The translations under genes and the position numbers were made by a program. 64,000 nucleotides of DNA from Candidatus Hydrothermarchaeales archaeon (lineage in GTDB: Archaea > Hydrothermarchaeota > Hydrothermarchaeia > Hydrothermarchaeales > JAZGAD01), in assembly GCA_036444275.1 (NCBI GenBank), contig JAZGAD010000048.1, forward strand, positions 18,542 to 82,541, written 5' to 3'. This document shows positions 374 to 49,247 of the stretch, piece after piece. Every line of letters begins with the position of its first letter. The stretch's first letter is position 1. The notes under the pieces were generated by a model. The model did no database searches and was not told the DNA's origin. It worked only from the letters and a program-made list of their open reading frames with translations.

Positions 374-754
374 ATGACTATTTACGAATATTACATACCA
401 GTAGCCATATTCATAATTGTTGGATTGCTTTTCCCGATTGCTGCGATGGTGTCCTCCTGGCTTTTTAGAGTCAAAAATCCCTATCCTGAGAAGCTCACGA
501 CCTTTGAATGCGGTGAGATACCAATTGGCAATGCACAGATCCAATTCGACATACAGTATTACATGTTCGCAATCCTCTTCGTAGTGTTTGACATAGAGAC
601 TGTCTTCCTCTATCCATGGGCGCTGGTATTCCCAGAACTCGGGATGCTAGCTGTGCTCGAGATGATCCTTTTCATCGCTATCTTAGCACTCGGCTTGATA
701 TACGCCTGGAAAAAGGGAGTCCTAGAATGGATGCCCCTTACCTGGAGGGATTAA
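374..754 (+). CDS. fpoA: F420H2 dehydrogenase / complex I subunit A
   Basis: K.TTFECG loop, YYMFAILFVVFDIE and YAWKKGVLEW motifs; 3 TM; first gene of the operon. Confidence 0.95.
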   Translation: MTIYEYYIPVAIFIIVGLLFPIAAMVSSWLFRVKNPYPEKLTTFECGEIPIGNAQIQFDIQYYMFAILFVVFDIETVFLYPWALVFPELGMLAVLEMILFIAILALGLIYAWKKGVLEWMPLTWRD

Positions 755-1282
755 ATGAAGGTTCCAGTGGCCTTTGCAAAAAAAGACGACCTCTTGAAGA
801 TCGCAGAAGACGAAGATAAGAGGTCCGCTGTCGTAGAAAGCATGAAAAACGGCAGGGACTACCTTATCAGGTGGGGGCGTAAATCATCATTATGGGGGTA
901 TGCCTTCGGCCTCGCCTGCTGTTCAGTAGAGATGATATGTTTTGGAGCAGCGAGGTGGGACGCTGACAGGTTCGGCGTGATCTTCAGAGGCTCCCCTAGG
1001 CAGTCAGACCTCATGATCGTGGGGGGCACTGTAACCAAGATGATGGCACCCCGCATAAGGCGTTTGTACCATCAGATGGCAGAGCCCAGGTGGGTAATCG
1101 CCACTGGAGAATGCGCCATAACAGGCGGCCCGTTTTGGGATTCCTACAGCATCGTAATGGGCACAGATAAAATAATCCCAGTAGACGTTGTTATCCCGGG
1201 TTGCCCAGCTAATCCAGATGCGCTTTTCGACGGCATAATAAAATTGCAGAAGAAGATAATGGAAGGGGACGCTGGAAGGTGA
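755..1282 (+). CDS. fpoB: F420H2 dehydrogenase / complex I subunit B (N2 cluster)
   Basis: [18 protein letters not shown] and [10 protein letters not shown] motifs. Confidence 0.95.
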
Positions 1283-2955
1283 ATGAGGTAATAGATGCGC
1301 TGAAGATGCGCTTTAAGGAGGATATCCTCCATATATATGAGCAAAGAGAGAAGAGGATAGTTGCTGCCGTAAAGAAAGCAAGCATATTAGATGTCTGCAG
1401 GTATCTAAAAGAAGAGCTGGATTTTGATCATCTCTCCACCATTGCAGCTGTTGACCGCTCAAGGCTCGTCTCTGGTATAGACCACGATGGAAGCATGATG
1501 TATCGCAAGGATTTCGAGGTCACCTATCATATCTGGTCCTATTCCAGGCATACGATAGTCGAGTTGAAAACCATTATACCATGGAATTCCCCAAAGCTGC
1601 CTTCAGTTACTCCAATATGGAGGTCTGCGAACTGGCATGAGCGGGAGCATTATGATTTGATGGGCATAGTATTTGAGGGGCATCCGAATCTGCGGAGGAT
1701 CCTATTACCACAGAACTGGAAGGGCCATCCGCTGAGAAAGAACTATAAACTTGCTGAGAGCTCCTGGTTTCTAGAGAAAGATGAAGCTGAGTCAGAGGGA
1801 AGTGAACTCGATGAGCAGGTGCCTTATTTCGAGCTTGATGATAAACTAGCAGATAAAGTGAAAGAGGCGCAGGTCTCGGAGATGATAGTCAGATGCGGTC
1901 CAGTGCATCCCGGCATACATGGGCCTTGGCTGATAAACCTTAAACTTGACGGCGAGATCATAGTCGATGTTGATATTCAAATCGGCTACATACATAGGGG
2001 GCTGGAAAAGATTGCCGAGAACAGGACTTACCAGCAGTATCTGCCGGTTTCTGATAGGTACTGCTGGCTTACAGCGATATCGAATAATCTCTCCTATGTG
2101 CTTGCAGTCGAGGACTTAATGGATATTAAGCCGACTGAGAGGGCAGAGTATATCAGGGTGATCGTGCTGGAGCTCAACCGGCTCGCGAGCCACCTGATAT
2201 GGCTGGGTGCAATGGGCATAGATCTAGGCAACATCTCAGGGCTCATCTATCCCTTCAGAGAACGGGAATGGATGCTCGATCTCTTGGAGATGGCCTCGGG
2301 TAACAGGATGAACTACAACTTCGGAAGGTTCGGGGGAGTACTCTTCGACTTGGATGAGAAATTCATAAAAAAGGCGAAGAAGACCATGGAGATCTTCATG
2401 CCGAGGCTGCAGGAATATGCGGACTTCTTCAGCGGCAGTAGGATATGGAGGGCTAGGACGCAGGGTGTAGGTGAACTAACAGCAAAGGATGCAAAAAATC
2501 TGGGTGTCACAGGGCCGATGCTCAGAGCTACTGGTGTAAAGGCTGACACGAGGAAAGACGATCCTTATGCTACCTATGAAGAGATCGACTTCGAGATTCC
2601 AACGAGGAAGGATGGCGATGCATTTGCAATGTATGAGGTAAGGATGGAAGAGATGAGGATAAGCACAGAGATAATTGACCAAGCCCTAGATAACCTCCCA
2701 AATGGCCCTTACCAGGAGGAAGTAGGAAGGGTTGAACCCAGTGGAGAGGCCCTCAGTAGGATAGAGGAGCCGAGGGGGGAGATCGCAACATACTTGGTCG
2801 GCGACGGTAGCGACAAGCCGTATAGGCTTAAGGTCCGGGCAGCAGAGTTTGTTAATATATCAGCGCTGCCCCACCTCGTGCGGGGATTTAAGATCCCTGA
2901 TTTAATAGCAATCATAGGAGGCATGGACCCATGTCTTGGGGGGATAGACAGGTAA
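1279..2955 (+). CDS. fpoCD: Fused subunit C/D of Fpo/complex I
   Basis: Nuo[27 protein letters not shown] followed by Nuo[26 protein letters not shown] and C-terminal DPCLGGIDR; no complete NiFe CxxC pairs. Confidence 0.93.
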
Positions 2956-2989
2956 GTAGGAGATAGGCGAGGCGAGGTTAGGAGGAAAA

Positions 2990-4117
2990 ATGGGACTTTA
3001 TGCTGAGGACATGGATCGGCTCTACCATGGGAGAACCGCATTTATCCAGCTAGTCGTGGCTGCTGCTACGATGGTTGTAGCTCTCGTTGGCGCCTCTTTG
3101 CTTGTAAGCTATATCGGGAGCCTTGCCCCTCCCTGGTTTTGGGATAATCCCTGGATCAGAGGCATTATAGGAGCGATTTTGTGGGCAGCGATCGCCGGTG
3201 TAGGCGGTCTGTACTTAACATGGCTTGAAAGAAAGGTGATGGCGAGGATCCAAGTAAGATACGGGCCGAATAGATGGGGAAAATACGGGCTCCTGCAACC
3301 GTTTGCAGACGCCATTAAATTACTGACAAAAGAAGATGTGATACTGGATGCAGCGGACAAAGCGGTCTTCAGAGCTGCGCCTATCGTTGCCTTTGCGCCT
3401 GCATTTCTAGCATTTGCAGCTGTCCCTGTTACCGCGGAGCTCATTGTTTCTAGAACTGATATAGGTATCTTATTCATAATCGCCGTGAGTTCTCTAACTC
3501 CTATAGGCGCTATCATGGCTGGATGGGGGCCAAATAATAAATGGAACCTCATAGGAGGGATGCGCTTCGCAGCCCAAATGATAAGCTACGAGGTGCCGAT
3601 GGTACTGGCGATCATAGGCCCGATAGCCCTTGCACGATCCCTTAACGGCGTAACGATAGTCATGGCACAGGCTGGCTACTGGTTTGGATTTATCCCAAAG
3701 TGGTATGTCTTCCTCCAGCCCCTGGGCTTTCTCATATTCCTCATAGCGTTCATGGCAGAAACCTGCAGGATACCCTTTGATCTTCCAGAGGCCGAAAATG
3801 AATTGGTCGGTGGCTGGATAACCGAGTACAGCGGCATGAAGTTTGTCATGCTCCTCCTCGTCGAATACGTTCATTTAATCGCCGGCGGCGCCTTGGTTGT
3901 GGTGTTGTTCCTAGGGGGCTGGCAGGGGCCATTCTTGCCTCCTCTGGCTTGGTTTATGATAAAGTTGCTAGCTGTGATTTTCTTCATGATGCTGGTTAGG
4001 GCAACGCACTTCAGGACGAGGATAGATCAACTCCTTGCTTTGGGCTGGAAAGTACTCCTTCCACTAGCACTTCTCAACATAGGCATAACAGGAATTATAT
4101 TGGCATTGACGGTGTAG
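2990..4117 (+). CDS. fpoH: F420H2 dehydrogenase / complex I subunit H
   Basis: ERKVMARIQVRYGPN, QPFADAIKLLTKE, PFDLPEAENEL and TEYSG motifs; extra hydrophobic N-terminal segment. Confidence 0.95.
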   Translation: MGLYAEDMDRLYHGRTAFIQLVVAAATMVVALVGASLLVSYIGSLAPPWFWDNPWIRGIIGAILWAAIAGVGGLYLTWLERKVMARIQVRYGPNRWGKYGLLQPFADAIKLLTKEDVILDAADKAVFRAAPIVAFAPAFLAFAAVPVTAELIVSRTDIGILFIIAVSSLTPIGAIMAGWGPNNKWNLIGGMRFAAQMISYEVPMVLAIIGPIALARSLNGVTIVMAQAGYWFGFIPKWYVFLQPLGFLIFLIAFMAETCRIPFDLPEAENELVGGWITEYSGMKFVMLLLVEYVHLIAGGALVVVLFLGGWQGPFLPPLAWFMIKLLAVIFFMMLVRATHFRTRIDQLLALGWKVLLPLALLNIGITGIILALTV

Positions 4118-4120
4118 GAA

Positions 4121-5797
4121 ATGGTATTAAAACCCACGATAATAGGATTCAAGCACCTCTTTAGAAGACCGGTGACGATACAGTATCCCTTCGAGAAACT
4201 GAAGGTCTCAGAGAAATACAGAGGCGTACCAGCTGTGAATCCAGATGCATGCACTGCTTGCGGTAGGTGCATAGAAGTATGCCCCAATGACTGTACCATA
4301 CTTGTAGATTGGGAGGGTGGCCAGAGAAAGGGAAACCAGGTGCCGAATTTGTATACCTCACGCTGCATGTTCTGCGGCCTATGCGTTGAGGTCTGTCCCA
4401 CTGGAGCACGAGTGAGTACGCGGGAATATGAGTTGGCGGAGTATACGCGAGAAGAATCCCTCTGGAGTCCTGAGCGTATGCTACCTCTCGTTATAGATAG
4501 AACCGTATCACCTATCGTTAAGGCACCAGAAATAAACGAGGATGAATGTGTAAACTGCTTGGAATGCAAGCGGATCTGCCCTGAAGATGCGATTTCGAAT
4601 ATCGATAAAGGTGACAAGAGGACGCTCGTGATAGACTATGATAAATGCACCTTCTGCGGGAAATGCATAGACATATGCCCGCCTCAAGCATTGAGATATG
4701 CGGAGAAAGAGATTAAAGAGGGCATGAAGCTCGAGTGGAAGAAGAAGATACCGGTTAAGGACATAGAAGTCAAAAATTACTTCGAGCTGCTAAATAAGAA
4801 GGTGATAGAGTCCAACTGGTGCTCCCACTGCACTGCATGCATAGTGGCATGCCCAGTCGAGAGGATAAAGGGAAAAGACGTGGAGATATACGAGGACGAG
4901 AGTATTGAGTGCAGCGACTGCAGTCTCTGTGTTCGTTCTTGCCCAAGATATGACTACGAGAATCCAAATGGTCTAGGCGATTATCTAGAGGTATTCTCAG
5001 CTGGCTCAAAGAGGTTCGTAGGCCAAGATGGAGCTATGGTAACAGAGCTACTAACGAGTGCGATGGAGATGGGCATCATAGACACAGCTATCGTGGTTTC
5101 TGGAGACAAGCACTGGCACCCGGTGCTTAGGATTGCGCACACACCTGAGGAAGTAACCGCTGGTTTGAAGACCAAGTATGCCCTGGCTGACGTTCTCTCT
5201 ATTTTGAAGCTTGCTGACAGTCAGACTAGAAAGGGTATTGGAATTGTGGGTACGCCGTGCCAGATAGAGGGCTTTAGGAGGCATGCCGAGAAGACCAAAT
5301 TCTTCACATCAAAAGTAAAGCTGGTTGTAGGCATCTTCTGCTTTGAGAATTTCTATTACAAGAGGTTCTACGAGGACTTTCTAGGCGGACACGGCATAGT
5401 TGCAAAGGATATAGAGAGGGCTGACATGAAGAAAGGCGTGCTCACCGTGGATACAAAAGACGGGAAGATATACGAGTTCAAGGTCGCCGAGTTCGAGCAC
5501 TATGCACTGCAGGGCTGCATGATCTGCCAGCACTTCATCAACATGACCGCTGACATTTCTGTGGGTGGAAGCGGATCCGAAATGGGTTTCAGTAGCGTAT
5601 TCGTCAGGAGGGAAAACGTGACGCCCATAATAGAGTACATGAGAGAAAAGGGTTATATCGAAGAAGCTGGGGAAGAACAGATGGAGAAGGTTTTGAAGGT
5701 GAATAATTTTATGTGCAGGTTTAAGATTAAGAAGCATCCGATTGAGCCCTATCTAGAGGCAAGAGGTAAAGCAGGAGTCGTTGCAGATGGCAGCTGA
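4121..5797 (+). CDS. fpoI: FpoI-polyferredoxin-FpoF(FrhB-like) fusion protein
   Basis: N-terminal VTIQYP and CTACGRC/CMFCGLC (NuoI); four further CxxCxxCxxxCP motifs; C-terminal FrhB domain (GQDGAMVT, VGTPCQ, GIFC.ENF, GCMIC, ADISVG). Confidence 0.9.
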   Translation: MVLKPTIIGFKHLFRRPVTIQYPFEKLKVSEKYRGVPAVNPDACTACGRCIEVCPNDCTILVDWEGGQRKGNQVPNLYTSRCMFCGLCVEVCPTGARVSTREYELAEYTREESLWSPERMLPLVIDRTVSPIVKAPEINEDECVNCLECKRICPEDAISNIDKGDKRTLVIDYDKCTFCGKCIDICPPQALRYAEKEIKEGMKLEWKKKIPVKDIEVKNYFELLNKKVIESNWCSHCTACIVACPVERIKGKDVEIYEDESIECSDCSLCVRSCPRYDYENPNGLGDYLEVFSAGSKRFVGQDGAMVTELLTSAMEMGIIDTAIVVSGDKHWHPVLRIAHTPEEVTAGLKTKYALADVLSILKLADSQTRKGIGIVGTPCQIEGFRRHAEKTKFFTSKVKLVVGIFCFENFYYKRFYEDFLGGHGIVAKDIERADMKKGVLTVDTKDGKIYEFKVAEFEHYALQGCMICQHFINMTADISVGGSGSEMGFSSVFVRRENVTPIIEYMREKGYIEEAGEEQMEKVLKVNNFMCRFKIKKHPIEPYLEARGKAGVVADGS

Positions 5798-6281
5798 TTT
5801 AGCAGTATTTTTAATAATAGCTCTGATTACGATAGTTGCATCTGTTTTAGTTCTAGAATCCAAAGAGATATTCCATGCCGCATTATTTTTGGCCTTATCC
5901 TTCATTGGCGTAGCCGGATTATTTGTACTCCTCGGGGCTGAATTCCTAGCTGCTATCCAGGTTTTGATCTATGCAGGGGCTGTGATTATACTGGTCTTAT
6001 TTGCAATCGTACTGACGAAGAGGGACAAGGTAGGAGCGGGACTGGAAGAGCATGACAGCAGCTTGTTGAGGTTCGTAATAGCTGCGGCGTTTGTATTCCT
6101 ACTGGCGCTGCCCATTGCAAGTGTCGCCTGGCCTACCCACATGGTGGTTGAGTTTTCTACAGCCGCAATAGGGATTTCGATGTTCACAGAGTATGTTATC
6201 CCGTTTGAGATAATATCATTGGTATTGCTAGCTGCTTTGATCGGCGCGGTTTTTCTTGCGAAGAGGGAGGATGCATCGTGA
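5787..6281 (+). CDS. fpoJ: Fpo/complex I subunit J
   Basis: AEFLAAIQVLIYAGAV and PFEIISLVLLAALIGA motifs. Confidence 0.93.
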   Translation: MAADLAVFLIIALITIVASVLVLESKEIFHAALFLALSFIGVAGLFVLLGAEFLAAIQVLIYAGAVIILVLFAIVLTKRDKVGAGLEEHDSSLLRFVIAAAFVFLLALPIASVAWPTHMVVEFSTAAIGISMFTEYVIPFEIISLVLLAALIGAVFLAKREDAS

Positions 6282-6586
6282 TTCCACTCCTCTATTACTT
6301 GCTCCTATCGACCGTTCTCTTTGGAATCGGAGCCTACGGGGTCATGACGAAGAGAAACGCAGTACGCGTGCTGATGGCGATCGAGATAATGATGAGTGCA
6401 GCGACGATAAACCTCGTGGCCTTCTCGGCGTATATGCCACACTTAAATATATCTGGACAGATATTCGCATTGTTCGTAATAGCAATTGCTGCAGCTGAAA
6501 GCTGTATTGGACTAGCGATATACATCCAGCTGTTCCGTGTCTACGGCACTATTGATGTTAGAGAGATGAGTACCCTGAAGTGGTAA
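6278..6586 (+). CDS. fpoK: Fpo/complex I subunit K
   Basis: LFGIG.YG, AIEIM and IAAAE..IGLA motifs. Confidence 0.94.
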   Translation: MIPLLYYLLLSTVLFGIGAYGVMTKRNAVRVLMAIEIMMSAATINLVAFSAYMPHLNISGQIFALFVIAIAAAESCIGLAIYIQLFRVYGTIDVREMSTLKW

Positions 6587-6600
6587 TAGGAAGGTTTGAC

Positions 6601-6699
6601 ATGCCTGAAGCTGAAGTGATACATTCGCTAAGACCGTTTACCCCACTGCAACTAGCGCATACAGCTGTTAAAGAGTTCTTGCACATCGGAGGATTATGA
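6601..6699 (+). pseudogene. 32-aa minigene: first and last residues of an MrpD-type gene joined by an internal deletion
   Basis: MPEAEVIHSLRP+FTPLQLAHTAVKEFLHIGGL* matches the N-terminus (MVAEVVQSIRP) and C-terminus (YTPFRLTHAAVRQFLHMPALF) of the 500-aa subunit at 19730..21232; purine-rich RBS upstream; ATGA overlap with the next gene. Confidence 0.75.
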
Positions 6700-7103: not shown

Positions 7104-9311
7104 ATGGATACCATAATCCTCCCGGCACTGATATATATTATAGGTGCGTGCTTGATCCCCTTTTTGAAGGGGAAGACCAAGAAGGCTTTCCTAGTCTTAG
7201 TACCTTTGATAGTCCTAGTAGAGGTACTCTTGATTAAGGCGCCTATGACTGGGTGGCGTTTTTCCTATCTAGATTTCACTATCACCCTATTCTACGCCGA
7301 TAGATTGAGCATGTTGATGGGGTACATATTCAGCATCATAGGCTTCCTGTGTATCCTCTACTCCCTCCATGTCGAAGATGATCAACATCACGTCTTCACC
7401 TTCCTCTATGTGGGCGCCGCATTGGGCGTCGTATATGCCGGGGACTTCTTCTCCTTCCTGGTGTTCTGGGAAATAATGGCCATCACCGGTGCCGGGATCA
7501 TATGGGTAAAGAGGGACGAAAAGGCGGTAAAGGCCGGGTTTAGATACGTGATGATGCACGTCATAGGTGGGGCCGTGCTGATGGCGGGCATACTGGTGCA
7601 CTATGCTTCTACCGGTTCCATCGTCATGGGTCCAGTGGAGTCGGGTATAGCAGCGGCTTTGATCCTCTTTGGAATCGGCTTGAATGCGGCATTCATCCCG
7701 ATCCACACATGGCTGCCTGATGGCTATCCCTCTGCCCCTCTCACTGGGAGCATCTTCCTCTGCGTATTCACCACCAAGAGCGCGGTCTATGCCCTCGCTA
7801 GAACATCTCACGGCCCATCCATGTTCGTCGCTTATATGGGGGGTTTGATGGCGGTATACGGCGTGACCTTTGCGTTGATGCAGGGCAATGCAAGGAAGTT
7901 GTTGTCCTACCACGTCATCAGCCAGGTGGGCTACATGGTGGCGGCCGTGGGCATAGGAACCGCCATCGGTGTAAATGGCGCCTTCTTCCATGTCTTCAAT
8001 CACATCCTCTACAAGTCCCTCCTCTTCATGTGCATAGGCGCCGTCATCTACCGCACGGGCATAGAAGATCTCAAAGAGCTCGGCGGACTCGCGAGAAAGA
8101 TGCCGATAACGACTCTAACTGCCATCGTCGCAGCGGCCTCCATTTCCGGTGTGCCCTTCTTCAATGGTTTTGCGAGCAAGGGTCTGATATTCGAGGGCGC
8201 CCACAACATACACGGTCTTTACATACTCCTGGAGATAGCGGCAGTGGGCACCTTCCTATCCTTCTGCAAATTCATCTACTTCGGGTTCTTGAGGAAGAGG
8301 GATGTAGAGCTCGATGTCAGCGATCCTCCTTTGCATATGTCCCTCTCCATGGCGATAACAGCCTTCATGTGCTTTTTCATCGGCGTCTATCCCCCGTTGG
8401 TAGCTACTATATTGCCATTCGAGACGCCCTTCCACTATTACGGGTTGGGACACCTCTTTGGCGCATTCCTCCTCCTGGGAACCACAGCGGTGATCTTCTG
8501 GAAAGGGAAGAATCTATTCGCGCCCCACAAGTGGGTGATTCGCGATTTTGATCGTATCTATAGAAGGGCCGCCACCGGCTTCTTCTGGTTATGCAATGTC
8601 CCGGGGGTTAAGATAGACAGGATGATAAACAGGGGCTACGAGGGCGGCAGCAGAAAGCTGATGACGGTCGCCATACCAGCGACGGAATTCGACAGGGTGA
8701 TAGACAATGCCTATGTGGGCACGGGTAAGAGGCTGGTTGAGACAGCTGCGCCCGCTACGGAATTTGACAGGATGATAGACAAGGGATATATTAAAACCGG
8801 TGAGAAGCTTGTGGATGCAGTTGGTCCCCCCGCTACGGAATTTGATAAGATGATAGACAAGGGATACGTAGAGACCGGCGAGAAGTTTGTGGATAGCATC
8901 GGCCGTGGTAAGGTGAGATACGAGCCTGGAGAGTCTGAATTTTTCGACGTGAAAAGTGAGGAGGAGTTTCGGTTGTTTGGGAGATACTCTGTTACCATTC
9001 CTAGTTTTGGGGAAAGGATGCCTTTGAAGAAGAGCGAGGGGATCTTCTTTGAGTTCACTAATCATGTAGCCGCATTTGACCTGAAGGTCATCGATGGGGT
9101 TGTAAATCTATGTGGCATGGGTGTCTGGGGCATTTCAAAGATATCGGATATATTCGATATAAGAGTTGTCGATGGTACTGTGAATGGCATCGCTGATGCA
9201 CTTCGTGTGTTCGGGAGCAAGCTGCGGAAACCCGAGACAGGGATAATACATGACTATGCAAGTGCAGTGATAATGGGAGTAATCGCTTTGGGGATAGTAA
9301 TACTAACCTAG
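7104..9311 (+). CDS. Chimeric antiporter-like subunit in the fpoL position: MrpD-type core, tandem helix repeats, NuoL/FpoL C-terminal tail
   Basis: FLVFWEIMA, GLNAAFIPIHTWLPDGYP, FTTKSAVY, HILYKSLLF, GFASK; tail FD.KVIDGVVN...LRKPETGIIHDYA plus final TM, typical of NuoL. Confidence 0.85.
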   Translation: MDTIILPALIYIIGACLIPFLKGKTKKAFLVLVPLIVLVEVLLIKAPMTGWRFSYLDFTITLFYADRLSMLMGYIFSIIGFLCILYSLHVEDDQHHVFTFLYVGAALGVVYAGDFFSFLVFWEIMAITGAGIIWVKRDEKAVKAGFRYVMMHVIGGAVLMAGILVHYASTGSIVMGPVESGIAAALILFGIGLNAAFIPIHTWLPDGYPSAPLTGSIFLCVFTTKSAVYALARTSHGPSMFVAYMGGLMAVYGVTFALMQGNARKLLSYHVISQVGYMVAAVGIGTAIGVNGAFFHVFNHILYKSLLFMCIGAVIYRTGIEDLKELGGLARKMPITTLTAIVAAASISGVPFFNGFASKGLIFEGAHNIHGLYILLEIAAVGTFLSFCKFIYFGFLRKRDVELDVSDPPLHMSLSMAITAFMCFFIGVYPPLVATILPFETPFHYYGLGHLFGAFLLLGTTAVIFWKGKNLFAPHKWVIRDFDRIYRRAATGFFWLCNVPGVKIDRMINRGYEGGSRKLMTVAIPATEFDRVIDNAYVGTGKRLVETAAPATEFDRMIDKGYIKTGEKLVDAVGPPATEFDKMIDKGYVETGEKFVDSIGRGKVRYEPGESEFFDVKSEEEFRLFGRYSVTIPSFGERMPLKKSEGIFFEFTNHVAAFDLKVIDGVVNLCGMGVWGISKISDIFDIRVVDGTVNGIADALRVFGSKLRKPETGIIHDYASAVIMGVIALGIVILT
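8601..8903 (+). repeat. Four tandem 75-78 bp (25-26 aa) coding repeats, consensus PATEFDRMIDKGYVxTGEKLV
   Basis: Units start at 8601, 8676, 8751 and 8829; visible in both DNA and protein. Confidence 0.9.
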
Positions 9312-9327: not shown

Positions 9328-10800
9328 ATGTTTCCTATACTGTCTGCGATGATTTTGTTGCCCTTGGTGGGCGCATGTGTAGGCTACCTTATAGGTAGAA
9401 AGAATGTGAGGACTGCGAAGTTTTTTGATGTAGCAATAATGCTTTTGACCTTTCTAATATCAGTCATAGCATATACACTGATTGACTTTTCAAAGCCTGG
9501 GTATCACCTCTTGGAGAGCATGCCCTGGGCGAGCTCCCTGGGCGTATCCTACACCCTAGGCGTAGACGGCATTAGCTATCCCTTGGTGCTACTCACTACC
9601 TTTATCTCTATACTCGCGATGGCCTCGTCGTGGCATATAACCGATAGGACGAACACGCATTATGCACTGTTGCTCCTGTTGGAGGCAGCCCTCTTAGGCG
9701 TCTTTGTATCGCTGGATCTCTTCCTATTCTTCATCTTTTGGGAGGTCGTCTTGGTGCCGATGTATTTCTTAATAGGGATCTGGGGCGGACCAAGGAGGGA
9801 GTACGCAGCTATAAAATTCTTTATATATACGCACCTCGGAGGGCTTTTTGTCTTGCTTTCAATCATAGCCTTATATTTCAATACAATCCCACACACTTTC
9901 AGCATGATCGAGATAGCGAAGGTTGCGCCTGGATTCTCGCAAAGTTTCCAGACCATTGTGTTCGCTGCCTTGTTCTTCGGTTTTGCGATAAAGCTCCCGA
10001 TTTTTCCCTTCCATACATGGCTGCCGGACGCCCACGTAGAGGCACCTACTGCAGGAAGCATACACCTCGCGGCACTTCTCCTAAAGATGGGTGGCTACGG
10101 CTTAATACGCATTGGAGTTATGATGGTACCAGACGGTGCTAGAGCTCTCGCTCCAGTCATGATTTTGTTGGCTGTGATAAGCGCCTTCTACGCAGCATTC
10201 TGCGCTATGGCGCAAAAAGACCTCAAGAAGATGATCGCCTATTCCAGTGTAAGCCACATGGGCTACGCCCTCCTGGGTATAGCTACATTCAACATCATAG
10301 GTATAACGGGCTCGATCTATGAGATGGTGGCACATGGATTAATAACAGGGATGCTTTTCTTCCTGTCAGGCATCATCCACGACCACGTCGGCTCGAGGAA
10401 CATAGAGGATATAATAGGTTTCGGGAAAAAGACGCCGAAGATTACGTTTGCAATCGTCATAGGGTTCTTCGGTGCTTTCGGTCTGCCCGGCCTAGCCGGA
10501 TTTGTAGCCGAGTTCATGATATTTGTCGGCGCCTTTGAGGCATTCAGGTTTATAGCAATAATAGTGGTCTTCTCGATTCTCTTCACAGCGGGATACTTCC
10601 TCTGGACGCTGCAGAGACTCGCCTTTAGGACGCCGCTTCCAACACTTAAGGAGCACATCGAAGACCTGGAGTTCTGGACCGAGCTGGTACCTATCGCTAT
10701 GACAATATTCCTTATAATCCTGCTTGGAATCTACCCCGCACCACTGCTGAACATGATGGACACCTCGGTTAAAGCCCTGGTCGCTGTTCTTGGGGGATAG
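9328..10800 (+). CDS. fpoM: Fpo/complex I subunit M
   Basis: FFIFWE, IWGG..REYAAIKF, KLPIFPFHTWLPDAHVEAPT, LLKMG and GFVAEF motifs. Confidence 0.95.
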   Translation: MFPILSAMILLPLVGACVGYLIGRKNVRTAKFFDVAIMLLTFLISVIAYTLIDFSKPGYHLLESMPWASSLGVSYTLGVDGISYPLVLLTTFISILAMASSWHITDRTNTHYALLLLLEAALLGVFVSLDLFLFFIFWEVVLVPMYFLIGIWGGPRREYAAIKFFIYTHLGGLFVLLSIIALYFNTIPHTFSMIEIAKVAPGFSQSFQTIVFAALFFGFAIKLPIFPFHTWLPDAHVEAPTAGSIHLAALLLKMGGYGLIRIGVMMVPDGARALAPVMILLAVISAFYAAFCAMAQKDLKKMIAYSSVSHMGYALLGIATFNIIGITGSIYEMVAHGLITGMLFFLSGIIHDHVGSRNIEDIIGFGKKTPKITFAIVIGFFGAFGLPGLAGFVAEFMIFVGAFEAFRFIAIIVVFSILFTAGYFLWTLQRLAFRTPLPTLKEHIEDLEFWTELVPIAMTIFLIILLGIYPAPLLNMMDTSVKALVAVLGG

Positions 10801-10802
10801 GC

Positions 10803-12230
10803 ATGAATTACCTTCTAGTAGCTCCAGAACTTATCCTCGCTTCTTTTGGCATAGTAGTACTACTCCTAGATCTATTCATAAAGGAAAAGAAACTGCTGAC
10901 CTACTGGACCCTGGCTGGATTACTGACAACTCTTTTAGCGGTGTTCTACCTGCTCGGTTCCAGTGGCTTGATCTGGAACGGTATATTGATTATAGACTCG
11001 TTTTCCCTGTTCTTCAAGATCGTCTTCCTTGTTGTCGCCATCCTCGTGACCCTCGCGTCTGCAACATACATCCAAGACGGCGATCTAGGAGAATATTTCA
11101 CGCTTATCATCTTTTCTACTCTGGGGATGATGTTTGTCGCCTCCTCAGGGGAGCTGATCACCCTCTTCGTATCCCTCGAGCTCGCCACCGTGCCGACCTA
11201 TGCCTTGGTGGGCTTCTTCAAGAAGGATCCTCACTCAAGCGAGGCTGCCATAAAATACTTCATCATCGGCGCACTCTCATCTGCGATAATCGTCTTCGGC
11301 ATGAGCCTAATCTATGGTGTAACCGGCTCAACGTACCTCTACGAGATCTCTGCTGCACTAAGAGAACCGGCGGTACAAGGCATGTACAACCCGGTCTTGC
11401 TTCTTGGGACTATCCTGCTGGTCGCTGGTTTTGCTTTTGAGATTGCTGCCGTGCCCTTCCACATGTGGGTCCCGGATACATACCAAGGAGCTCCGACCAC
11501 AATCACGATTTTCATGGCAGCCCAGGCAGAGGCAATGGGGTTTGCAGCGATTTTCAGGCTCTTTGGAGTCGCACTTGGGCCATTACAGCTCAACTGGCAG
11601 TCCCTCTTCATGGTTCTTGCCGTGATGACGCTGCTCCTCGGCAACCTTGTGCCACTAGTGCAGACGAGTGTGAAGCGTTTGCTGGCCTATTCCTGCATCG
11701 GGCATGCTGGCTACATTCTGATTGGCTTAGCGGTTGCCACACCCCTCGGATTCACTGGCGGGATGTTCCATGTTTTAACATATGCATTTATGAAGGGCGG
11801 GGCTTTCCTCGTTGTAACCATGGTCTCCTACACCCTCCTCGTGGACGACATCGATGATTACGCTGGACTGAGAGATAAGGCACCGCTTACAGCGTTTTGC
11901 ATGCTCATATTCCTTCTTTCGCTCGCTGGAGTCCCACCGCTAGCTGGTTTCTGGAGCAAATTCATTATATTCTCAGCCGCAATAGAGGGGGGCGTAGCAT
12001 GGCTTGCCGTATTGGGAGTTATAACAAGTGCTATATCCCTATACTACTATGCGAGGATCATAAAAGCTATGTACCTCACCCCTACCGAGAAAATGGAGAG
12101 GATTAAGGAGCCGAAGCCCCTGCTTCTTGCCATGCTGATCGCACTAGCAGGCACTATTTTAATCGGGCTGTATCCCGAGCCTATATTGAAGTTCGTGTCA
12201 AGTGCAGTACAGAGCCTGCTCTTCTATTAA
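10803..12230 (+). CDS. fpoN: Fpo/complex I subunit N
   Basis: LFVSLEL, SSEAAIKYF, AAVPFHMWVPDTYQGAPT, KRLLAYS and GVPPLAGFWSK motifs; last gene of the operon. Confidence 0.93.
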   Translation: MNYLLVAPELILASFGIVVLLLDLFIKEKKLLTYWTLAGLLTTLLAVFYLLGSSGLIWNGILIIDSFSLFFKIVFLVVAILVTLASATYIQDGDLGEYFTLIIFSTLGMMFVASSGELITLFVSLELATVPTYALVGFFKKDPHSSEAAIKYFIIGALSSAIIVFGMSLIYGVTGSTYLYEISAALREPAVQGMYNPVLLLGTILLVAGFAFEIAAVPFHMWVPDTYQGAPTTITIFMAAQAEAMGFAAIFRLFGVALGPLQLNWQSLFMVLAVMTLLLGNLVPLVQTSVKRLLAYSCIGHAGYILIGLAVATPLGFTGGMFHVLTYAFMKGGAFLVVTMVSYTLLVDDIDDYAGLRDKAPLTAFCMLIFLLSLAGVPPLAGFWSKFIIFSAAIEGGVAWLAVLGVITSAISLYYYARIIKAMYLTPTEKMERIKEPKPLLLAMLIALAGTILIGLYPEPILKFVSSAVQSLLFY

Positions 12231-16038: not shown

Positions 16039-16518
16039 TTAATGCATGTGTTTGTGGCTTTCGTGCTCTCTAAATCCATAGACCATCAGTAGTAGAGAGA
16101 TGACAATCATTATGAGGAACCTGCTGAATCCTACTATCGTGGGCTCGTGATAGTGGGCAACGGCAGGCATTAGGGAGATAACGATTGCCCCTGCTGCAAA
16201 TATCCCGATTGTAAGGATATATCTTGATGTTTCATATTTCGTCTCTTTGCCATGCTTCATTTTTTTAATGTTCTTTATGTACTGCACTAGGTATGCTATA
16301 GCTAGGAAAGCAAACAACCAAAAGAACCAGTATACGAAAGGCGCCCCATGTTCTTCCTCATGCACTTCTCCTTCTCCATGTCCTACCTCTCCAACTTCCT
16401 GCACCTCTACCCCACGGGTGGGCTCGGTTTTAGCCGCTTCACTGGCACTCGCTGTTGCAAACAATCCTACAAATAAGATCACATATATACCAGCGAGTAT
16501 CAACATCTGTCTTTTCAT
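16039..16518 (-). CDS. Membrane protein with signal/TM, His/Glu-rich linker and 3 TM
   Basis: Start MKRQMLIL after AGGTGA RBS (not 16704); GEVGHGEGEVHEEEHG; C-terminal HESHKHMH. Confidence 0.75.
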   Translation of the reverse strand: MKRQMLILAGIYVILFVGLFATASASEAAKTEPTRGVEVQEVGEVGHGEGEVHEEEHGAPFVYWFFWLFAFLAIAYLVQYIKNIKKMKHGKETKYETSRYILTIGIFAAGAIVISLMPAVAHYHEPTIVGFSRFLIMIVISLLLMVYGFREHESHKHMH

Positions 16519-16526
16519 AGCATCAC

Positions 16527-16817
16527 CTAGAATATGCACTCCTTGTGCTCTTTCTTTGTCAGAGTGTATGTCGCTGTGAAGAACAGGACAGCAACGACGA
16601 CTTCTATTATGTGTCTGAATGCATCCATCGGTTCTGGGAAAAACCCTACTAACCCTATGAAGTCTGAGAGTAGCATTAACGTAGCGCTGGCTAAAGCCAT
16701 ACACGTTAGGAACCAGAAACCACTGTGCTCTGTTCTCCGATAGACTCTAACCGCTAGGTATGTTGTAAAGGCAAAATATAGCGCCCCAGCCAGCCCGAAG
16801 ATTACGTGCAGCTCCAT
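16527..16817 (-). CDS. Small 3-TM protein with conserved His
   Basis: MELH start, three hydrophobic helices, FRHIIE; resembles the adjacent 101-aa gene. Confidence 0.75.
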   Translation of the reverse strand: MELHVIFGLAGALYFAFTTYLAVRVYRRTEHSGFWFLTCMALASATLMLLSDFIGLVGFFPEPMDAFRHIIEVVVAVLFFTATYTLTKKEHKECIF

Positions 16818-17123
16818 CTATGACTCCTCCTTTGGGCAGCATGTATCCAAGAACTTCACCGATAGGTAACAGCTTAGAGAAAAGGATATGCCCGCTAATG
16901 CGTAGAGGCCATGCTCCAATAATAGCCAAGAACTGTTCGCGTAAAGATCCCCCAAGATCTCGGTCATTCGCCCCATTAATATTGCTATAAGCCCGCCTGC
17001 ATAGAATAACCCGCGTTTTTCATATCTCTTGCTGCCTGCGATAGTCAGGAAGGCAAACGAAAACAATAGGAATATTGCCGCGATGCCAGCAGATGCCAAA
17101 TCCCATATCAGGTGCAACTCCAT
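16818..17123 (-). CDS. Small 3-TM protein with conserved His
   Basis: MELH start, GGTGG RBS, LLEHGL in helix 3. Confidence 0.75.
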   Translation of the reverse strand: MELHLIWDLASAGIAAIFLLFSFAFLTIAGSKRYEKRGLFYAGGLIAILMGRMTEILGDLYANSSWLLLEHGLYALAGISFSLSCYLSVKFLDTCCPKEES

Positions 17124-17236: not shown

Positions 17237-19711
17237 TCACATCGTACCTAGTGCTGTTAGCAGGTATATGGTAAGCATGGTTGCCATTATGATAACTGCA
17301 ATACTAATACCACTGATATTCGGTGTCTCATACAACAACTTACGGCTTTTTTGCTCAAATTCCGCTGCTCTATTCTGGAAGCCCGGTATCTCCTCCTCTC
17401 CAAAGAGTAGATCAAAGGGATATGAAAGCATTGCATATGGATATTTGGCCACCGTGATTACGTCCTCACCTATTTCCCTGAAGAAATCCTCTGCATTCTG
17501 GTCGAATATCGAGACCGGCTCCCTAAGGTACTTGAATCTTACTTTCACCCCCAGAATCCTGTCCTGTATGTCCTTTGGTAGGCTTGAAACCTTGATGAAT
17601 TCTTTACCTCTCTTTATGTATAAATCATCTATGCTATCAAACCTTGTCATGGGTGACTTCGCTATCTCAATAAACTTTCTACCGCGCTTTATATACAAGT
17701 ATAACATGCCAGACTTTCCAGGTGGACCGACTGCATCCACAAGCTTCTCACCGGTTTTAACGTATCCCTTGTCTATCATCCTGTCAAATTCCGTAGCGGG
17801 CGCAGCAGCCTCAACCAGCCTCTTACCCGTGCCCACATAGGCCTCATCTATCACTCTATCGAATTCCGTAGCAGGCACAGCTACCCTCATCATCTTCCTA
17901 CCCGAGCCCACATAGGCATTATCTATAACCCTGTCGAAACTCGTAAACGGACCCATGCAAAGCCCTACCAAGGCACCGGCAGTCCGGCCATACCAATAAT
18001 CAACCCCCAACCAACTCGGCAAGTGGATGTGGAACCAACCCTGCTTTATCCCAAGGGCATAGACAAGAGCACCTATAAACAAGCTGACGCCAATACCTAA
18101 GAGGCTATGCACAGTCCACACGTCTATATAGGCCAACTCCTCTACGAAGACCCCGCCATAGGTATAGGCAGAGGCAGCGGGAATCAAGAAACGGTCAACC
18201 AAGAGATTCGGCAACACACCCAAGAGGAGTATCACAGAGGCAAGGCCGCCCATAGCAATCTTCATAGGCAAGGGAGCATCCCTAACCTCGCCGAAACGCT
18301 CATCCTTCTTACCCAGGAACGTGAACGTAACCAGCTTAATAAACGAGGCAGCAGTACCGCCGCCCGTGACTACAAATATGAGTTCAGCGAGATGCAGGGA
18401 ATTCATGCCAAGCAGGGGAATCACCACGCTAGAGGCCTCCTTAGCCTCGATGATAGCATCATGCAGGATAGTCTTACTCGCATAGCCATTGAAACCAGGC
18501 ACACCAACAATACCAGCGGCTGCAATCACCATGACCAAAAACGTGAAAGGCATATCCCTCCACAGGCCGCCCAACTTATACATGTTAAGCTCTTTGGTAC
18601 GATAATAGACAGCGCCGACGCCAAGGAACAACAAGGCCTTAAACAAGGCATGGTTAATGATGTGGTAGACACCACCAGCAAAGCCAATCACACCCCCATA
18701 GCCGAGGTAGGCGCCAACGCCAATACCCATGAGTATGTATCCCATCTGGCTTATACTATGATACGCCAGCATACGCTTAGAATTCTCCTGCAACAAGGCC
18801 ATGCAGACAGCAAAAAACATAGTCACAATACCAATCCAGATCATCCAATAACCAATAACAGACGTAGCATCCCAAGCACCACTAAGAGAAAACGCCCCAA
18901 TGCTAGGCGTGAACATCATGTTCACCACCCTAACAATACCATAGGCACCGGCCTTAATCATGACGCCAGAGAGCAAGGCACTAGCAGGCGAAGGAGCAAC
19001 AGGGTGCGCCTCAGGCAGCCAAATGTGCACAGGAAACATACCAGCCTTCACGCCAAAGCCCAGTACCATCAACCCAGCTATCGCATACCTCCACGAGCCT
19101 AGGAAAGCCAATTCCTCTGCCAAAGGAACAAGAGCGAGAGAACCAGTATAGATATAGATTAGTACAATGCCAAACAAGAGCGAGAGGCCACCCCCAATCC
19201 CCATGAACAAGTATTTCCTACCGGCACGCATAGCCGCAGGCGTCTCAGTGTGTACAACTAGGACCCAGGAGCTCAGGGTAAGCAGCTCAAAAAAGATGAA
19301 CAAACTGAAGAGGTCACCAGTCAACAGGACGCCAAGGTCAGCGGCGAGAGTAAGCACAAAGAAGGCGTAGTACCTATCCCTAGCGTGTTCATGCGTCATA
19401 TAACTGATAGAATAGACCGCTACAAGAAGCCAGACAAAAGAAGTGACCAGGGCAAAGAGGAAGCCAGTGCCGTCAACCCAGAAGCCAATGCCAAAGATCA
19501 TGAGGCTCCCCAAGTCGTACCCGACGACACCGCCGCCACTTATAACGGGGTACATAGAGGCAACAAGGACGAACGAAGCGAGGCAGATGGCTACGGCAAG
19601 GGCATCTCTAAGGCGTTCGGAACGCCTGCCCAGTGGATACAAAAACAAAGACCCCAACAAAGGCACAAACACAGCCAAAGCTGGCGTTATTGATATTTCC
19701 ATGGGTGTCAT
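17237..19711 (-). CDS. MrpA/NuoL-like large antiporter subunit with repeat-extended C-terminal helix
   Basis: FIFFELL, GFGVKAGMFPVHIWLPEAHPVAP, VMIKAG, HALFKALLF, GYASK; C-terminal PATEFDR repeats and terminal TM. Confidence 0.9.
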   Translation of the reverse strand: MTPMEISITPALAVFVPLLGSLFLYPLGRRSERLRDALAVAICLASFVLVASMYPVISGGGVVGYDLGSLMIFGIGFWVDGTGFLFALVTSFVWLLVAVYSISYMTHEHARDRYYAFFVLTLAADLGVLLTGDLFSLFIFFELLTLSSWVLVVHTETPAAMRAGRKYLFMGIGGGLSLLFGIVLIYIYTGSLALVPLAEELAFLGSWRYAIAGLMVLGFGVKAGMFPVHIWLPEAHPVAPSPASALLSGVMIKAGAYGIVRVVNMMFTPSIGAFSLSGAWDATSVIGYWMIWIGIVTMFFAVCMALLQENSKRMLAYHSISQMGYILMGIGVGAYLGYGGVIGFAGGVYHIINHALFKALLFLGVGAVYYRTKELNMYKLGGLWRDMPFTFLVMVIAAAGIVGVPGFNGYASKTILHDAIIEAKEASSVVIPLLGMNSLHLAELIFVVTGGGTAASFIKLVTFTFLGKKDERFGEVRDAPLPMKIAMGGLASVILLLGVLPNLLVDRFLIPAASAYTYGGVFVEELAYIDVWTVHSLLGIGVSLFIGALVYALGIKQGWFHIHLPSWLGVDYWYGRTAGALVGLCMGPFTSFDRVIDNAYVGSGRKMMRVAVPATEFDRVIDEAYVGTGKRLVEAAAPATEFDRMIDKGYVKTGEKLVDAVGPPGKSGMLYLYIKRGRKFIEIAKSPMTRFDSIDDLYIKRGKEFIKVSSLPKDIQDRILGVKVRFKYLREPVSIFDQNAEDFFREIGEDVITVAKYPYAMLSYPFDLLFGEEEIPGFQNRAAEFEQKSRKLLYETPNISGISIAVIIMATMLTIYLLTALGTM
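17722..17875 (-). repeat. About 155 bp near-identical to 8676..8830 in inverted orientation
   Basis: Reverse complement contains cctatgtgggcacgggtaagaggctggttgag and cccgctacggaatttgacaggatgatagacaagggata, identical to the fpoL-slot gene. Confidence 0.92.
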
Positions 19712-19729: not shown

Positions 19730-21232
19730 CTAGAATAGTGCAGGCATATGTAGAAATTGTCTAACAGCTGCATGAGTTAATCTGAATGGCGTATACGGCA
19801 CGTTTACAAAAATCCCGAGAGCTATTGTAGCTATTGCTAATACAACTGCAGGCAATATTAATCTTATTGGTGCTTCATCATATTCTGTTATTCCGTCATC
19901 AGGCTCTTCAAAGAAGCCATTGTAGATAATGGGGAGATAATACCCAGCATTCAGAAACGCACTGATCAATATCACGATTACGAAGATAGGGTGCCCTGCC
20001 TCAAGGGACCCTATAGCAATAAACCACTTTGTTATGAAGCCCGTTAGGGGCGGGAAGCCTATTACCCCCAATGCACAGATGGAAAAGGTCATCATTGTTA
20101 TGGGCATACGTTTTCCGAGGCCGCGCATCTCGCTTATATTCTTTTTTCCGGTATGCACAAACATCGCACCTGCAATGAAGAATAGCCCACTCTTCATGAT
20201 AGCCTGGTGAACTATGTGTATTATACCGCCAGTTAGGCCGTTTGGGCTTAATAGCGCTACCCCCAAGACGACGTAGGAGAGCTGACTCACAGTCGAATAC
20301 GCAAGCCTCAACTTCAGATTATTTTGTCTAAACGCGTATATTGAAGCCACGAGTATCGTTATCGTTGCAACATAGGCGAGGATTATACCGAGGCCGAGCT
20401 CGCGCATGAGGTCCACACCAAATATATTATACACTACCCTAACGATCCCAAATACCCCTGCCTCTACTACTGCAAGAAGAGCGTTAGCCGGTGTAGGCGC
20501 AACCATAGATGTGGGGAGCCACCCATGCAGGGGCATTATCGCTGACTTGACGCCGAAACCCATTATATACACCAAGAAAAGCAGACGCAGTGTATTCACC
20601 GGGGCAGTGCCTGCCAGTATGCCTGTCTGGGACAGCGTTACAGTGCCGGCCAACACATATGTCATGGCCATAGCACCTAAAACAGTTACCCCCCCGAATA
20701 ATACATACATCAAGTATTTTCTACCAGCGCGCATCGCCTCTTCTGTCTCATGGTGTATTATCAATGGATAGACACTTATTGACAACATTTCGTAGAATAT
20801 GAACAAAGTGAACATGTTGCCGGCATAGGCTATGCCATTAGCCGCTGCAATAGACATTGCAAATGCCGCATAAAACCTAGTCTGGTTTCGCTCACGCATA
20901 CTCCTCATGTACCCTATTGTGTAGATCGCCAAGAGGATCCACATAGAGGAGGACAAGAACGCGAAGAACTGCCCAAGAGCATCTACCCTGAACTCCAGTG
21001 TAAGCATCGGGGAAATCCTAATTAGATTGGACTTATATTCTATTATGGTACCCTGCAAAGTAGGCGGCAGCAGTGACGCAACAACCCAGAATATGGATAA
21101 CGCCGCACCCATAGTCCAGAATTCTCGTAGGTTTTTGCGCTTTTCGCCTGACAGCAATATTAGGAAAGCACAGATGATGGCTCCCAGCGGAGCCAACGCA
21201 GGTCTAATAGACTGGACTACTTCAGCTACCAA
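19730..21232 (-). CDS. mrpD: MrpD-type antiporter subunit (third)
   Basis: NLREFWT, LFIFYEML, GFGVKSAIMPLHGWLP, LAYSTVSQL and GFITKW motifs. Confidence 0.9.
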   Translation of the reverse strand: MVAEVVQSIRPALAPLGAIICAFLILLSGEKRKNLREFWTMGAALSIFWVVASLLPPTLQGTIIEYKSNLIRISPMLTLEFRVDALGQFFAFLSSSMWILLAIYTIGYMRSMRERNQTRFYAAFAMSIAAANGIAYAGNMFTLFIFYEMLSISVYPLIIHHETEEAMRAGRKYLMYVLFGGVTVLGAMAMTYVLAGTVTLSQTGILAGTAPVNTLRLLFLVYIMGFGVKSAIMPLHGWLPTSMVAPTPANALLAVVEAGVFGIVRVVYNIFGVDLMRELGLGIILAYVATITILVASIYAFRQNNLKLRLAYSTVSQLSYVVLGVALLSPNGLTGGIIHIVHQAIMKSGLFFIAGAMFVHTGKKNISEMRGLGKRMPITMMTFSICALGVIGFPPLTGFITKWFIAIGSLEAGHPIFVIVILISAFLNAGYYLPIIYNGFFEEPDDGITEYDEAPIRLILPAVVLAIATIALGIFVNVPYTPFRLTHAAVRQFLHMPALF

Positions 21233-21246
21233 TTCATCACCTCAAA

Positions 21247-22725: not shown

Positions 22726-22769
22726 GCAGCCACCCTTCTAGTTTCTACGCAACCATGGGTAAGCCGTTC

Positions 22770-22790
22770 TACTTACTTATAACTTTCTAT
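22770..22790 (-). promoter_or_regulatory. Putative internal BRE/TATA promoter inside the mrp operon
   Basis: Reverse strand AGAAAGTTATAAGTA within a 140-bp AT-rich gap upstream of 22725. Confidence 0.45.
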
Positions 22791-22865
22791 TCGTCTTGTT
22801 AATCACTCCTAAGTGATGACCTAATATTTATTATTAATTATTATAATTTTAGATTTTAGGATGAA

Positions 22866-26789: not shown

Positions 26790-26810
26790 AATACGGCCTC
26801 ACATTATTGC

Positions 26811-38217: not shown

Positions 38218-38338
38218 TTTTGAATTTGATTTGATTGAATTTATTTATGCTAGCTAAGGTACAAACCAAAAAATTTGTAAATGCTAATTAAAGGGTAGAT
38301 TTTCCTATCAGTGTTGCATTTGGCATACGATGGTTTAA

Positions 38339-38560: not shown

Positions 38561-38595
38561 ATATGGAAAGTTCTACGAAGGTGCCCGAGTACCTT

Positions 38596-49236: not shown

Positions 49237-49247
49237 GAGGTTGAAAG

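Follow-up and report, generated by a model that had tools for sequence, protein, structure and literature searches.

In complex I-type machines, the pump subunits are physically held together by the lateral helix alone, whose length has been taken as a record of pump number. The '2M' form of complex I was reportedly first described by Chadwick et al. in 2018. According to the available extract of PMC9040806, about 26 amino acids (aa) of additional lateral helix for each extra pump subunit are found in NuoL of the Nitrospira '2M' complex I and in MrpD2 of Complex_I_3 of 'Ca. Manganitrophaceae'; in the 'green' complex I of rhizobia, two MrpD-like subunits replace NuoL and no helix insertion is present. 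Here we analyze a stretch of 64,000 nucleotides (nt; hereafter the window, positions 18,542 to 82,541 of contig JAZGAD010000048.1) from a Candidatus Hydrothermarchaeales archaeon, in which the distal antiporter-like subunit (735 aa) of an F420H2-dehydrogenase-type (Fpo-type) operon carries a tandem-repeat extension of the lateral helix that recurs in an 824-aa subunit of a nearby mrp-like operon. The contig (C48, 82.5 kb) belongs to a metagenome-assembled genome of 1.49 Mb that is 81% complete (G000).

In the 735-aa protein, a tandem expansion of four 25–26-aa units plus a linker of ~56 aa is inserted in the strap, a stretch free of transmembrane (TM) helices that is bounded by the last TM helix of the core and by the final TM helix (aa 467–712, 246 aa by hydropathy). 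The gene and the parts of its strap region are as follows:

7104 to 9311, + strand: 735-aa antiporter-like subunit at the FpoL position, with MrpD/MbhH-type core, extended lateral-helix region and final TM helix (PF00361, NF009310, AlphaFold2, Foldseek)
8547 to 8600, + strand: canonical first lateral-helix unit (FDRIY..., aa 482–499; alignment with relatives, AlphaFold2 helix 480–498)
8601 to 8906, + strand: four tandem 25–26-aa units (xIDRMINRGY / PATEFDRVIDNAY / PATEFDRMIDKGY / PATEFDKMIDKGY; repeat analyses, AlphaFold2 helices)
8907 to 9074, + strand: non-repeat linker of ~56 aa, mostly predicted as coil (AlphaFold2 coil 599–643), conserved with the L-type tail
9075 to 9239, + strand: canonical double lateral-helix unit (FDLKVIDG... 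/ FDIRVVDG...RKPETG), matched by FpoL of the other genomes of the phylum and by most homologues
9240 to 9308, + strand: final TM helix, equivalent to TM16 (hydropathy 717–735, AlphaFold2 helix 714–734)

As in the '2M' and Manganitrophaceae complexes, in so far as the extract of PMC9040806 presents them, the extra sequence lies in the C-terminal amphipathic lateral helix of the distal subunit, occurs in lineages with extra pumps and involves an MrpD-like protein in the NuoL role. Unlike the single insertion of ~26 aa given there, it consists of four units and a 56-aa linker, amounting to ~120–170 extra residues. It also differs in that the module was exchanged between two complexes, that the host is an archaeal Fpo-type complex, that the number of units varies and differs from that of extra pump genes, and that the window operon (735-aa gene, fpoM and fpoN plus a relic, see below) holds no intact extra pump gene. 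The MrpD-type core at the FpoL position and the extra MrpD-like gene behind fpoK, present in relatives and as a relic in the window, resemble the 'green' complex I of the same extract, to which an array-less operon of a relative (genome G019) is nearer than the window operon is. We consider this tandem-repeat lateral-helix extension, which an Fpo-type complex and an mrp-like module have exchanged by recombination, to be a real and unusual feature, the nearest published case being the single 26-aa insertion (PMC9040806). A literature search, which included the accessible parts of PMC6759336, PMC9012536 and PMC11291895, returned no description of such arrays; supplements outside its scope may show further helix insertions.

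The four tandem units were already recognized in the first-pass annotation of the window, and their periodicity was confirmed here. Self-identity within aa 496–606 reached 23 residues at a lag of 25 and 25 residues at a lag of 26, compared to a maximum of 17 in 5000 shuffles over lags of 15–39. The units span aa 500–524, 525–549, 550–575 and 576–601 (nt 8601–8675, 8676–8750, 8751–8828 and 8829–8906), are thus 25, 25, 26 and 26 residues long, and have 7–19 of 25 residues in common in any pairwise comparison. A repeat at the DNA level was detected by Tandem Repeats Finder at positions 8751–8894 (period 78, 1.8 copies, 86% matches) and covers the two youngest units. The placement of the array within the lateral helix was likewise correct, as the last TM helix of the core lies before it and the final TM helix after it. 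Straps measured 191–290 aa in nine array proteins and 77–130 aa in those array-less relatives whose final helix was located by a scan, in which three further array-less proteins measured 27, 44 and 155 aa.

AlphaFold2 modelled the core of the 735-aa protein confidently (predicted local distance difference test score, pLDDT, >90) and drew helices in the strap at residues 503–547, 552–572, 577–598 (pLDDT 41–57), 644–680 and 685–708, with a pLDDT of 27–33 in the coil of the linker. The repeat region is moderately amphipathic (mean hydrophobic moment 0.377, compared to 0.234 in shuffles). In line with the first-pass annotation, the array is thus moderately amphipathic and predicted, at low confidence, to be helical. 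Because each unit has a proline and a T-x-x-D capping box at its start and a glycine at its end, the array would, judged from its sequence, form a chain of individually capped helices of ~20 residues and not one rod. An alternative reading of the unit half 'Y-I-K-x-G-E-x-F-V' as a beta-hairpin was neither confirmed nor excluded, as both AlphaFold2 runs draw helices with low confidence. A complex prediction of the array (aa 476–606) with the 500-aa MrpD-like protein of the mrp-like operon scored 0.00, which counts neither for nor against binding. Querying the ESM Atlas with aa 476–645 yielded nothing at ≥0.9 and no TM-score >0.30, and no Pfam or NCBIfam family matched the C-terminal 266 aa.

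The first-pass annotation also listed a duplication in the tail of the protein. This pattern is present (FDLKVIDGVVN at aa 658 and FDIRVVDGTVN at aa 684, 7 of 11 residues identical at a lag of 26), but it is not special: its count was reached by 48% of the shuffles of the whole region, and the pair also occurs in canonical FpoL proteins of the phylum. Since 127 among the best 150 of 494 homologues align from at or before the first tail unit through the second, the pair appears from these alignments to be the ordinary two-unit lateral helix of the family.

The mrp-like operon is located ~5 kb past the fpo operon, on the − strand and convergent to it. Its genes are ordered as a 274-aa membrane protein, E, F, G, MbhE-like, MnhB, C, three MrpD-like genes (496, 492 and 500 aa), the 824-aa subunit, and two small membrane proteins:

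24369 to 27635, − strand: MrpC, MnhB, MbhE-like, MrpG, MrpF and MrpE, together with a 274-aa polytopic membrane protein without family at the operon head (Pfam)
19730 to 24356, − strand: three MrpD-like genes (500, 492 and 496 aa; PF00361, MrpD-type NCBIfam models best but below their cut-offs)
17237 to 19711, − strand: 824-aa MbhH/MrpA-like subunit with the shared array and an 'A-type' tail that ends in one TM helix (Pfam, AlphaFold2, structure matches)
17723 to 17950, − strand: three clear units of the repeat in the 824-aa protein, aa 588–663, most of the stretch being covered by the nucleotide alignment to the array of the 735-aa gene
17588 to 17698, − strand: two degenerate units of the 824-aa protein, aa 672–708 (10 and 12 bits with a hidden Markov model, HMM, of the repeat)

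A similar array in the 824-aa Mrp subunit had been reported by the first-pass annotation, and its three clear and two degenerate units agree with this. The strap of the 824-aa protein measures 240 aa; AlphaFold2 gave a core pLDDT >90 and helices in the repeat region at residues 570–635, 641–660, 662–684 and 692–709. According to Pfam, the Mrp gene set E, F, G, B, C and D is fully present in the operon, and its E, F, G, B, C, D gene order is like that of archaeal Mbh. Unlike the Mrp and Mbh systems used for comparison, which have one MrpD-like gene, the operon contains three. The core of the 824-aa protein is closest to MbhH and MrpA. No MrpA model of NCBIfam reached its cut-off, and unlike bacterial MrpA the protein has no fused MrpB-like domain and has a single TM helix after the 240-aa repeat-bearing stretch. 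The 274-aa polytopic protein (26811–27635, − strand) is conserved at the operon head in two related genomes (G031 and G032), and the 824-aa gene is followed by genes for membrane proteins of 101 and 221 aa (16039–17123, − strand). In the mrp-like operon of G031, an IS66-family transposase gene directly follows the second MrpD-like gene (L034 9971–11335, G031:C23), and another contig of this genome (L035) contains a 78-aa MrpD fragment with stop codons.

The core of the 735-aa protein is of the MrpD/MbhH type and not a true FpoL or NuoL. The protein matched PF00361 (Proton_antipo_M) with 153.8 bits (gathering score 21.5; the 824-aa protein reached 192.9 bits) and passed the MrpD-type equivalog model NF009310 (PRK12668) of NCBIfam with 609.1 bits vs a cut-off of 564 (residues 3–532, profile positions 5–537 of 584), whereas it failed the FpoL model NF040617 (130.8 vs 1050) and the NuoL model TIGR01974 (127.1 vs 407.5). 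The N-terminal domain PF00662 had no match in the 735-aa protein at E ≤ 0.001 and is present in the 824-aa protein. Traits that are FpoL/NuoL-like are the lateral helix (a low-confidence model), the last TM helix, and the position of the gene between fpoK and fpoM; the tail units and the last helix align with FpoL of the other genomes (query residues 179–265). The best solved relatives of the core are MbsH', MbhH and MrpD, and Foldseek ranked chains of MrpA, NdhF, NuoL and MbhH; MrpA (PDB 6z16, 7qru) and MbhH/MbsH' of MBH/MBS (6cfw, 6u8y) provided the best sequence and fold matches of both cores. In a quick tree, which carries only Shimodaira–Hasegawa-like approximate likelihood ratio test (SH-aLRT) support, the core grouped with the array-less L-prime (L') subunits of G019 (578–586 aa), and this L-prime clade had the clade of the 824-aa protein as its sister and stood apart from the canonical FpoL clade of the phylum. 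Neither the 735-aa nor the 824-aa protein is a textbook FpoL or MrpA.

Aligned by blastn, the genes of the 735-aa and 824-aa proteins matched in the array alone (84.2% over 215 nt), and the two proteins share 33% identity over 715 columns. Between the two arrays (78 codons), the synonymous and nonsynonymous divergences were dS = 0.52 and dN = 0.16; between units 3 and 4 they were dS = 0.81 and dN = 0.135. The array peptide is under purifying selection. Because only the array aligns at the DNA level, and considering these dS and dN values, we conclude that the module moved between the two paralogues after their divergence.

When cores (first 440 residues) and tails (last 100) were compared separately, all four combinations of types were found. 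An L-prime core with an L-type tail occurs in the 735-aa protein, P0003 and P0004; an L-prime core with an A-type tail in P0006 and the 718-aa protein of G030; an A-type core with an L-type tail in P0005 and P0007; and an A-type core with an A-type tail in the 824-aa protein. As P0004 and P0006 have almost the same core and different tails, the array is a recombination point through which core and tail types were shuffled. Contigs of related genomes often end within arrays. The tail type goes with the neighboring genes: L-type tails precede fpoM-fpoN wherever the downstream region is visible (the window, G030, G031, G032 and G033), and the 101-aa membrane protein is encoded downstream of A-type tails in five of the eight genes whose downstream sequence is visible. 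This small protein is a possible anchor partner of the A-type tail.

The fpo-type operon on the + strand is ordered A, B, fused CD, H, an I-F fusion, J, K, a 134-aa orphan, the 735-aa antiporter-like gene, M and N. Besides the 735-aa gene, it comprises:

374 to 6586, + strand: fpoA, B, fused CD, H, fused I-F, J and K, encoding the redox part and the proximal membrane part of an F420H2-dehydrogenase-type complex (Pfam matches per open reading frame)
6601 to 6699, + strand: 33-codon MrpD-like relic, its first 12 codons in frame with the last 20 and the stop, which overlaps the next start codon (nucleotide match to contig C21)
6696 to 7100, + strand: small membrane protein of 134 aa, His/Glu-rich in its middle (G030 and G019 have homologues upstream of the orthologous core gene)
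9328 to 12230, + strand: fpoM (9328–10800) and fpoN (10803–12230; PF00361, TIGR01972 and TIGR01770 above cut-offs)

The relic lies between fpoK and the 134-aa gene. Positions 6532–6635 of the window correspond to 51–154 of contig C21 of the same assembly (103 of 104 nt identical), and positions 6633–6668 to C21 1577–1612 (35 of 36 identical), so that the relic amounts to an in-frame deletion of 1422 nt at a 3-nt overlap. Contig C21 (G000:C21, L041 1–1640) starts with the 17 final codons of an fpoK-like frame and then carries a full MrpD-like gene, and its surroundings are otherwise different. The intact C21 copy and the deleted window copy may stem from a single genome or from two strains in the same bin. 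In the quick tree, the C21 gene grouped with the K-adjacent MrpD-like (D) genes of the sister family f9 and of G019. An MrpD-like gene directly follows fpoK in G031, G032, G033 (where a second one follows the first) and two operons of G019, which are ordered K-D-orf-L-prime-M-N and K-D-L-prime plus one M/N-like gene; in G030 the order is L*-M-N-D-orf-L-prime on one strand. Based on the relic, the full C21 copy and its place in the tree, we conclude that the ancestral operon was K-D-orf-L-prime-M-N. Extra MrpD-like subunits in Fpo are common in this order of archaea, and since the L-prime proteins of G019 are array-less, one extra pump needs no array.

No known Pfam family was found for the 134-aa protein. 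A small membrane protein of this kind, with a signal-like helix, a His/Glu-rich part, a 'PWW/PWE' motif and a C-terminal helix, is encoded directly upstream of L-prime-type core genes in all three cases with visible upstream sequence (other copies: L031 5446–5751 and L060 4711–4950). A likeness between the 134-aa protein and the 221-aa protein of the mrp-like operon, both being His/Glu-rich before a TM helix, was not significant (BLASTP E = 0.22).

The 558-aa I-F protein (4121–5797) fuses FpoI (NuoI-type, 2x[4Fe-4S]) to extra ferredoxin domains and an FpoF/FrhB-type F420 module, the FrhB_FdhB N and C domains standing behind the FpoI ferredoxin part in Pfam. It passes the cut-off of the NCBIfam NuoI model and falls short of the FpoF model (160.4 vs 475). 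The fusion is retained at full length in family f9 (61–67% identity); the open reading frames at this position in G019 have just 141 and 189 aa and match the FpoI part only. A text search of the literature found no paper describing an FpoI-FpoF fusion. Farther downstream, the window encodes an iron-sulfur protein of 739 aa (HdrA/MvhD-like), a multihaem cytochrome c of 524 aa, and a molybdopterin oxidoreductase with a 4Fe-4S partner (35998–40170 and 46435–49871), which are possible electron partners of the membrane complexes.

Repeat arrays of this kind are rare. A word-based search of 5.8 billion proteins with aa 470–735 retrieved six proteins, and an exhaustive search of 1.84 billion representatives gave 494 matches. 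Among the best 150 of these 494, 12 have a best stretch that starts before query residue 150, including the query itself, one borderline case (start at 148) and one that matches the canonical first unit only; the other 138 match the canonical tail only, one of them spuriously. A scan of 185,579 species genomes found the motif in Hydrothermarchaeales only (four loci in three genomes). Within the phylum, seven of 38 genomes contain arrays, namely G000 and all six of its sister family f9 (Hydrothermarchaeales). These seven genomes have 8, 4, 0, 5, 8, 6 and 6 PF00361 matches, most others have three, and G000 holds eight antiporter-like genes. Array-less genomes with many PF00361 matches are G018 and G019 (seven each) and G014 (six). 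The association of arrays with enlarged pump sets still stands.

Metagenomic homologues were found with P0059, which shows a strong 25-aa period of FD..ID..Y units at the same place (70 identities vs a shuffle maximum of 35). At this place L062 (1–2682) has a strong 28-aa period (98 identities vs a shuffle maximum of 37) made of five 28-aa units of unrelated sequence. The arrays considered here fall into these two sequence families, the 25–26-aa FD..ID..Y type, which includes P0059, and the 28-aa L062 type. Both P0059 and L062 represent metagenomic MrpA/MbhH-like proteins of 864–894 aa. Long metagenomic strap subunits measure 864–1296 aa if complete, and two contig-cut ones have 886 and 894 aa. 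In nine one-D operons of the E-F-G-MbhE-MnhB-C-D-A build, the single strap subunit has 700–717 aa and the stretch 67–120 aa; two of these nine were tested and gave no repeat signal. The only long form with readable context, L065, is encoded in the order MnhB-C-D-D-(three regulator genes)-D-A(994) with three D genes, as in the window, and is one supporting data point and not a trend.

We consider the most likely role of the array, with slightly better than even confidence, to be that of a lengthened, segmented strap for enlarged pump modules. The units would be amphipathic helices with their own caps that together make up a segmented surface strap and extend the clamp that runs from the distal pump to its C-terminal anchor helix. 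The module probably originated within the strap subunit of Mrp/Mbh-type modules with several MrpD-like subunits, to be imported later into the distal subunit of Fpo; ancestrally, this subunit would have worked with an extra MrpD-like partner (K-D-orf-L'-M-N). The array may let the strap span, or keep slack across, more than two canonical neighbors, and would not be a strict ruler of one unit per subunit. The enlarged membrane arm suggested by the first-pass annotation is retained in so far as arrays occur only in lineages with enlarged antiporter-like gene sets and MrpD-like genes reside within the fpo operons of relatives, but not as a one-unit-per-subunit ruler. Similarly, its proposal that repeat number follows antiporter gene number across relatives, with independent variation speaking against it, holds for the joint occurrence of arrays and enlarged pump sets, but because the unit counts of proteins with L-type tails run from two to six, unit number varies independently of subunit number.

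Several observations weigh against a spanning strap. The array region has a pLDDT of just 27–57 in the 735-aa and 33–53 in the 824-aa protein, so its helices are weakly supported, and no result places the array in contact with any subunit. The fpo operon combines three pump genes with a strap of 246 aa and the mrp-like operon three D genes with one of 240 aa; both straps have ~3x the length that a spacing of 26 aa per subunit would require. In G019, the four-pump operon (K-D-L'-M-N) has an array-less L', and both L-prime straps of this genome measure 77–86 aa. HMM unit counts differ among L-type-tail proteins that all precede M-N, being two in G032 and G033, four in the 735-aa protein and six in G031; contig ends truncate several of the counted proteins, including that of G031. 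In Fpo, the array could also be a passenger of a tail swap. Among the long metagenomic forms, the periodicity of L065 is no higher than the best value in 1000 shuffles, and neither L064 nor L077 has a repeat signal.

A strict ruler, with one unit per extra subunit and D subunits shared in a giant Fpo-Mrp machine that chains up to ~8 pumps, would explain why the period matches the increment published for each extra pump subunit, as the first-pass annotation had pointed out (extract of PMC9040806), and seven residues-per-turn repeats would fit a 25-residue period, so that the same helix face would be kept from unit to unit. The eight antiporter-like genes of the genome, the two operons ~5 kb apart with an array in common, and the D-type and L'-type genes embedded in fpo operons of relatives also agree with such a machine. 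We nevertheless regard it as quite unlikely, given that operon pump counts disagree with unit counts, that one linear chain would not need two equally long straps, that a proline and a glycine at every unit boundary speak against one continuous helix, and that the four-pump operon of G019 manages without an array. Nothing supports a sharing of subunits between the fpo and mrp operons, and the giant assembly put forward initially is unsupported by the counts and remains speculation. It is unlikely, if less so, that the array is a docking or tethering arm, i.e. a surface-exposed helical hairpin or solenoid that docks onto a second complex, lipids or another partner and, for example, links Fpo and Mrp particles side by side or dimerises them, and that it does not span extra pumps. 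A near-identical peptide on two different complexes (units 2–3 differ at three of 52 residues), purifying selection on the sequence itself, a length beyond any ruler need, and conserved small membrane proteins encoded beside each strap gene would suit an arm of this kind, but no partner was found, Atlas and family searches with the array gave nothing, and the descent of the array from the lateral helix and its place within it favor the strap role.

That the units are slack tolerated in a permissive linker, produced by replication slippage or recombination and without a function of their own, seems very unlikely: unit number does differ among close relatives, contigs of related genomes break within arrays and the structure models are of low confidence, but dN/dS is ~0.17–0.31, the unit motif is conserved across the archaeal family and in distant metagenomic proteins, and arrays of different sequence recur at the same place. 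An assembly artefact, in which the array or the core-tail joint would be a chimera of two paralogues in a metagenome-assembled genome, is extremely improbable. Both genes have an exact 44-nt word in common, assemblies of related genomes break at arrays, and the sequencing runs compared (no RNA data and four DNA sets with shares of 0.09–0.19, which represent contigs of relatives and not the source sample) did not confirm the unit copy number. However, both genes are complete on a single 82.5-kb contig, other data sets contain full-length proteins (747 and 771 aa) built in the same way, and a contig of a ~91%-identical relative joins units 3–4 to the same tail.

Beyond the segmented strap as such, we tentatively raise, as a rather doubtful extension, that lateral-helix arrays are a recurrent device by which Mrp-, Mbh- and Fpo-type machines chain at least four antiporter-like subunits and swap the anchoring tails of their distal pumps. 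The Fpo complex studied here would then recruit MrpD-like subunits encoded elsewhere (by C21 or the mrp-like operon) under its 246-aa strap, and arrays acting as recombination hot spots would let cells re-wire which complex a distal pump joins.

The strap described here is three to four times the usual length, built of repeats, common to a redox-driven complex and an antiporter-like module, and combined with different anchor tails. If it does not clamp extra subunits, strap length would be unusable as a simple subunit counter. If it does, these complexes would be among the largest pump chains proposed, which would bear on ion-to-electron ratios at the thermodynamic limit.

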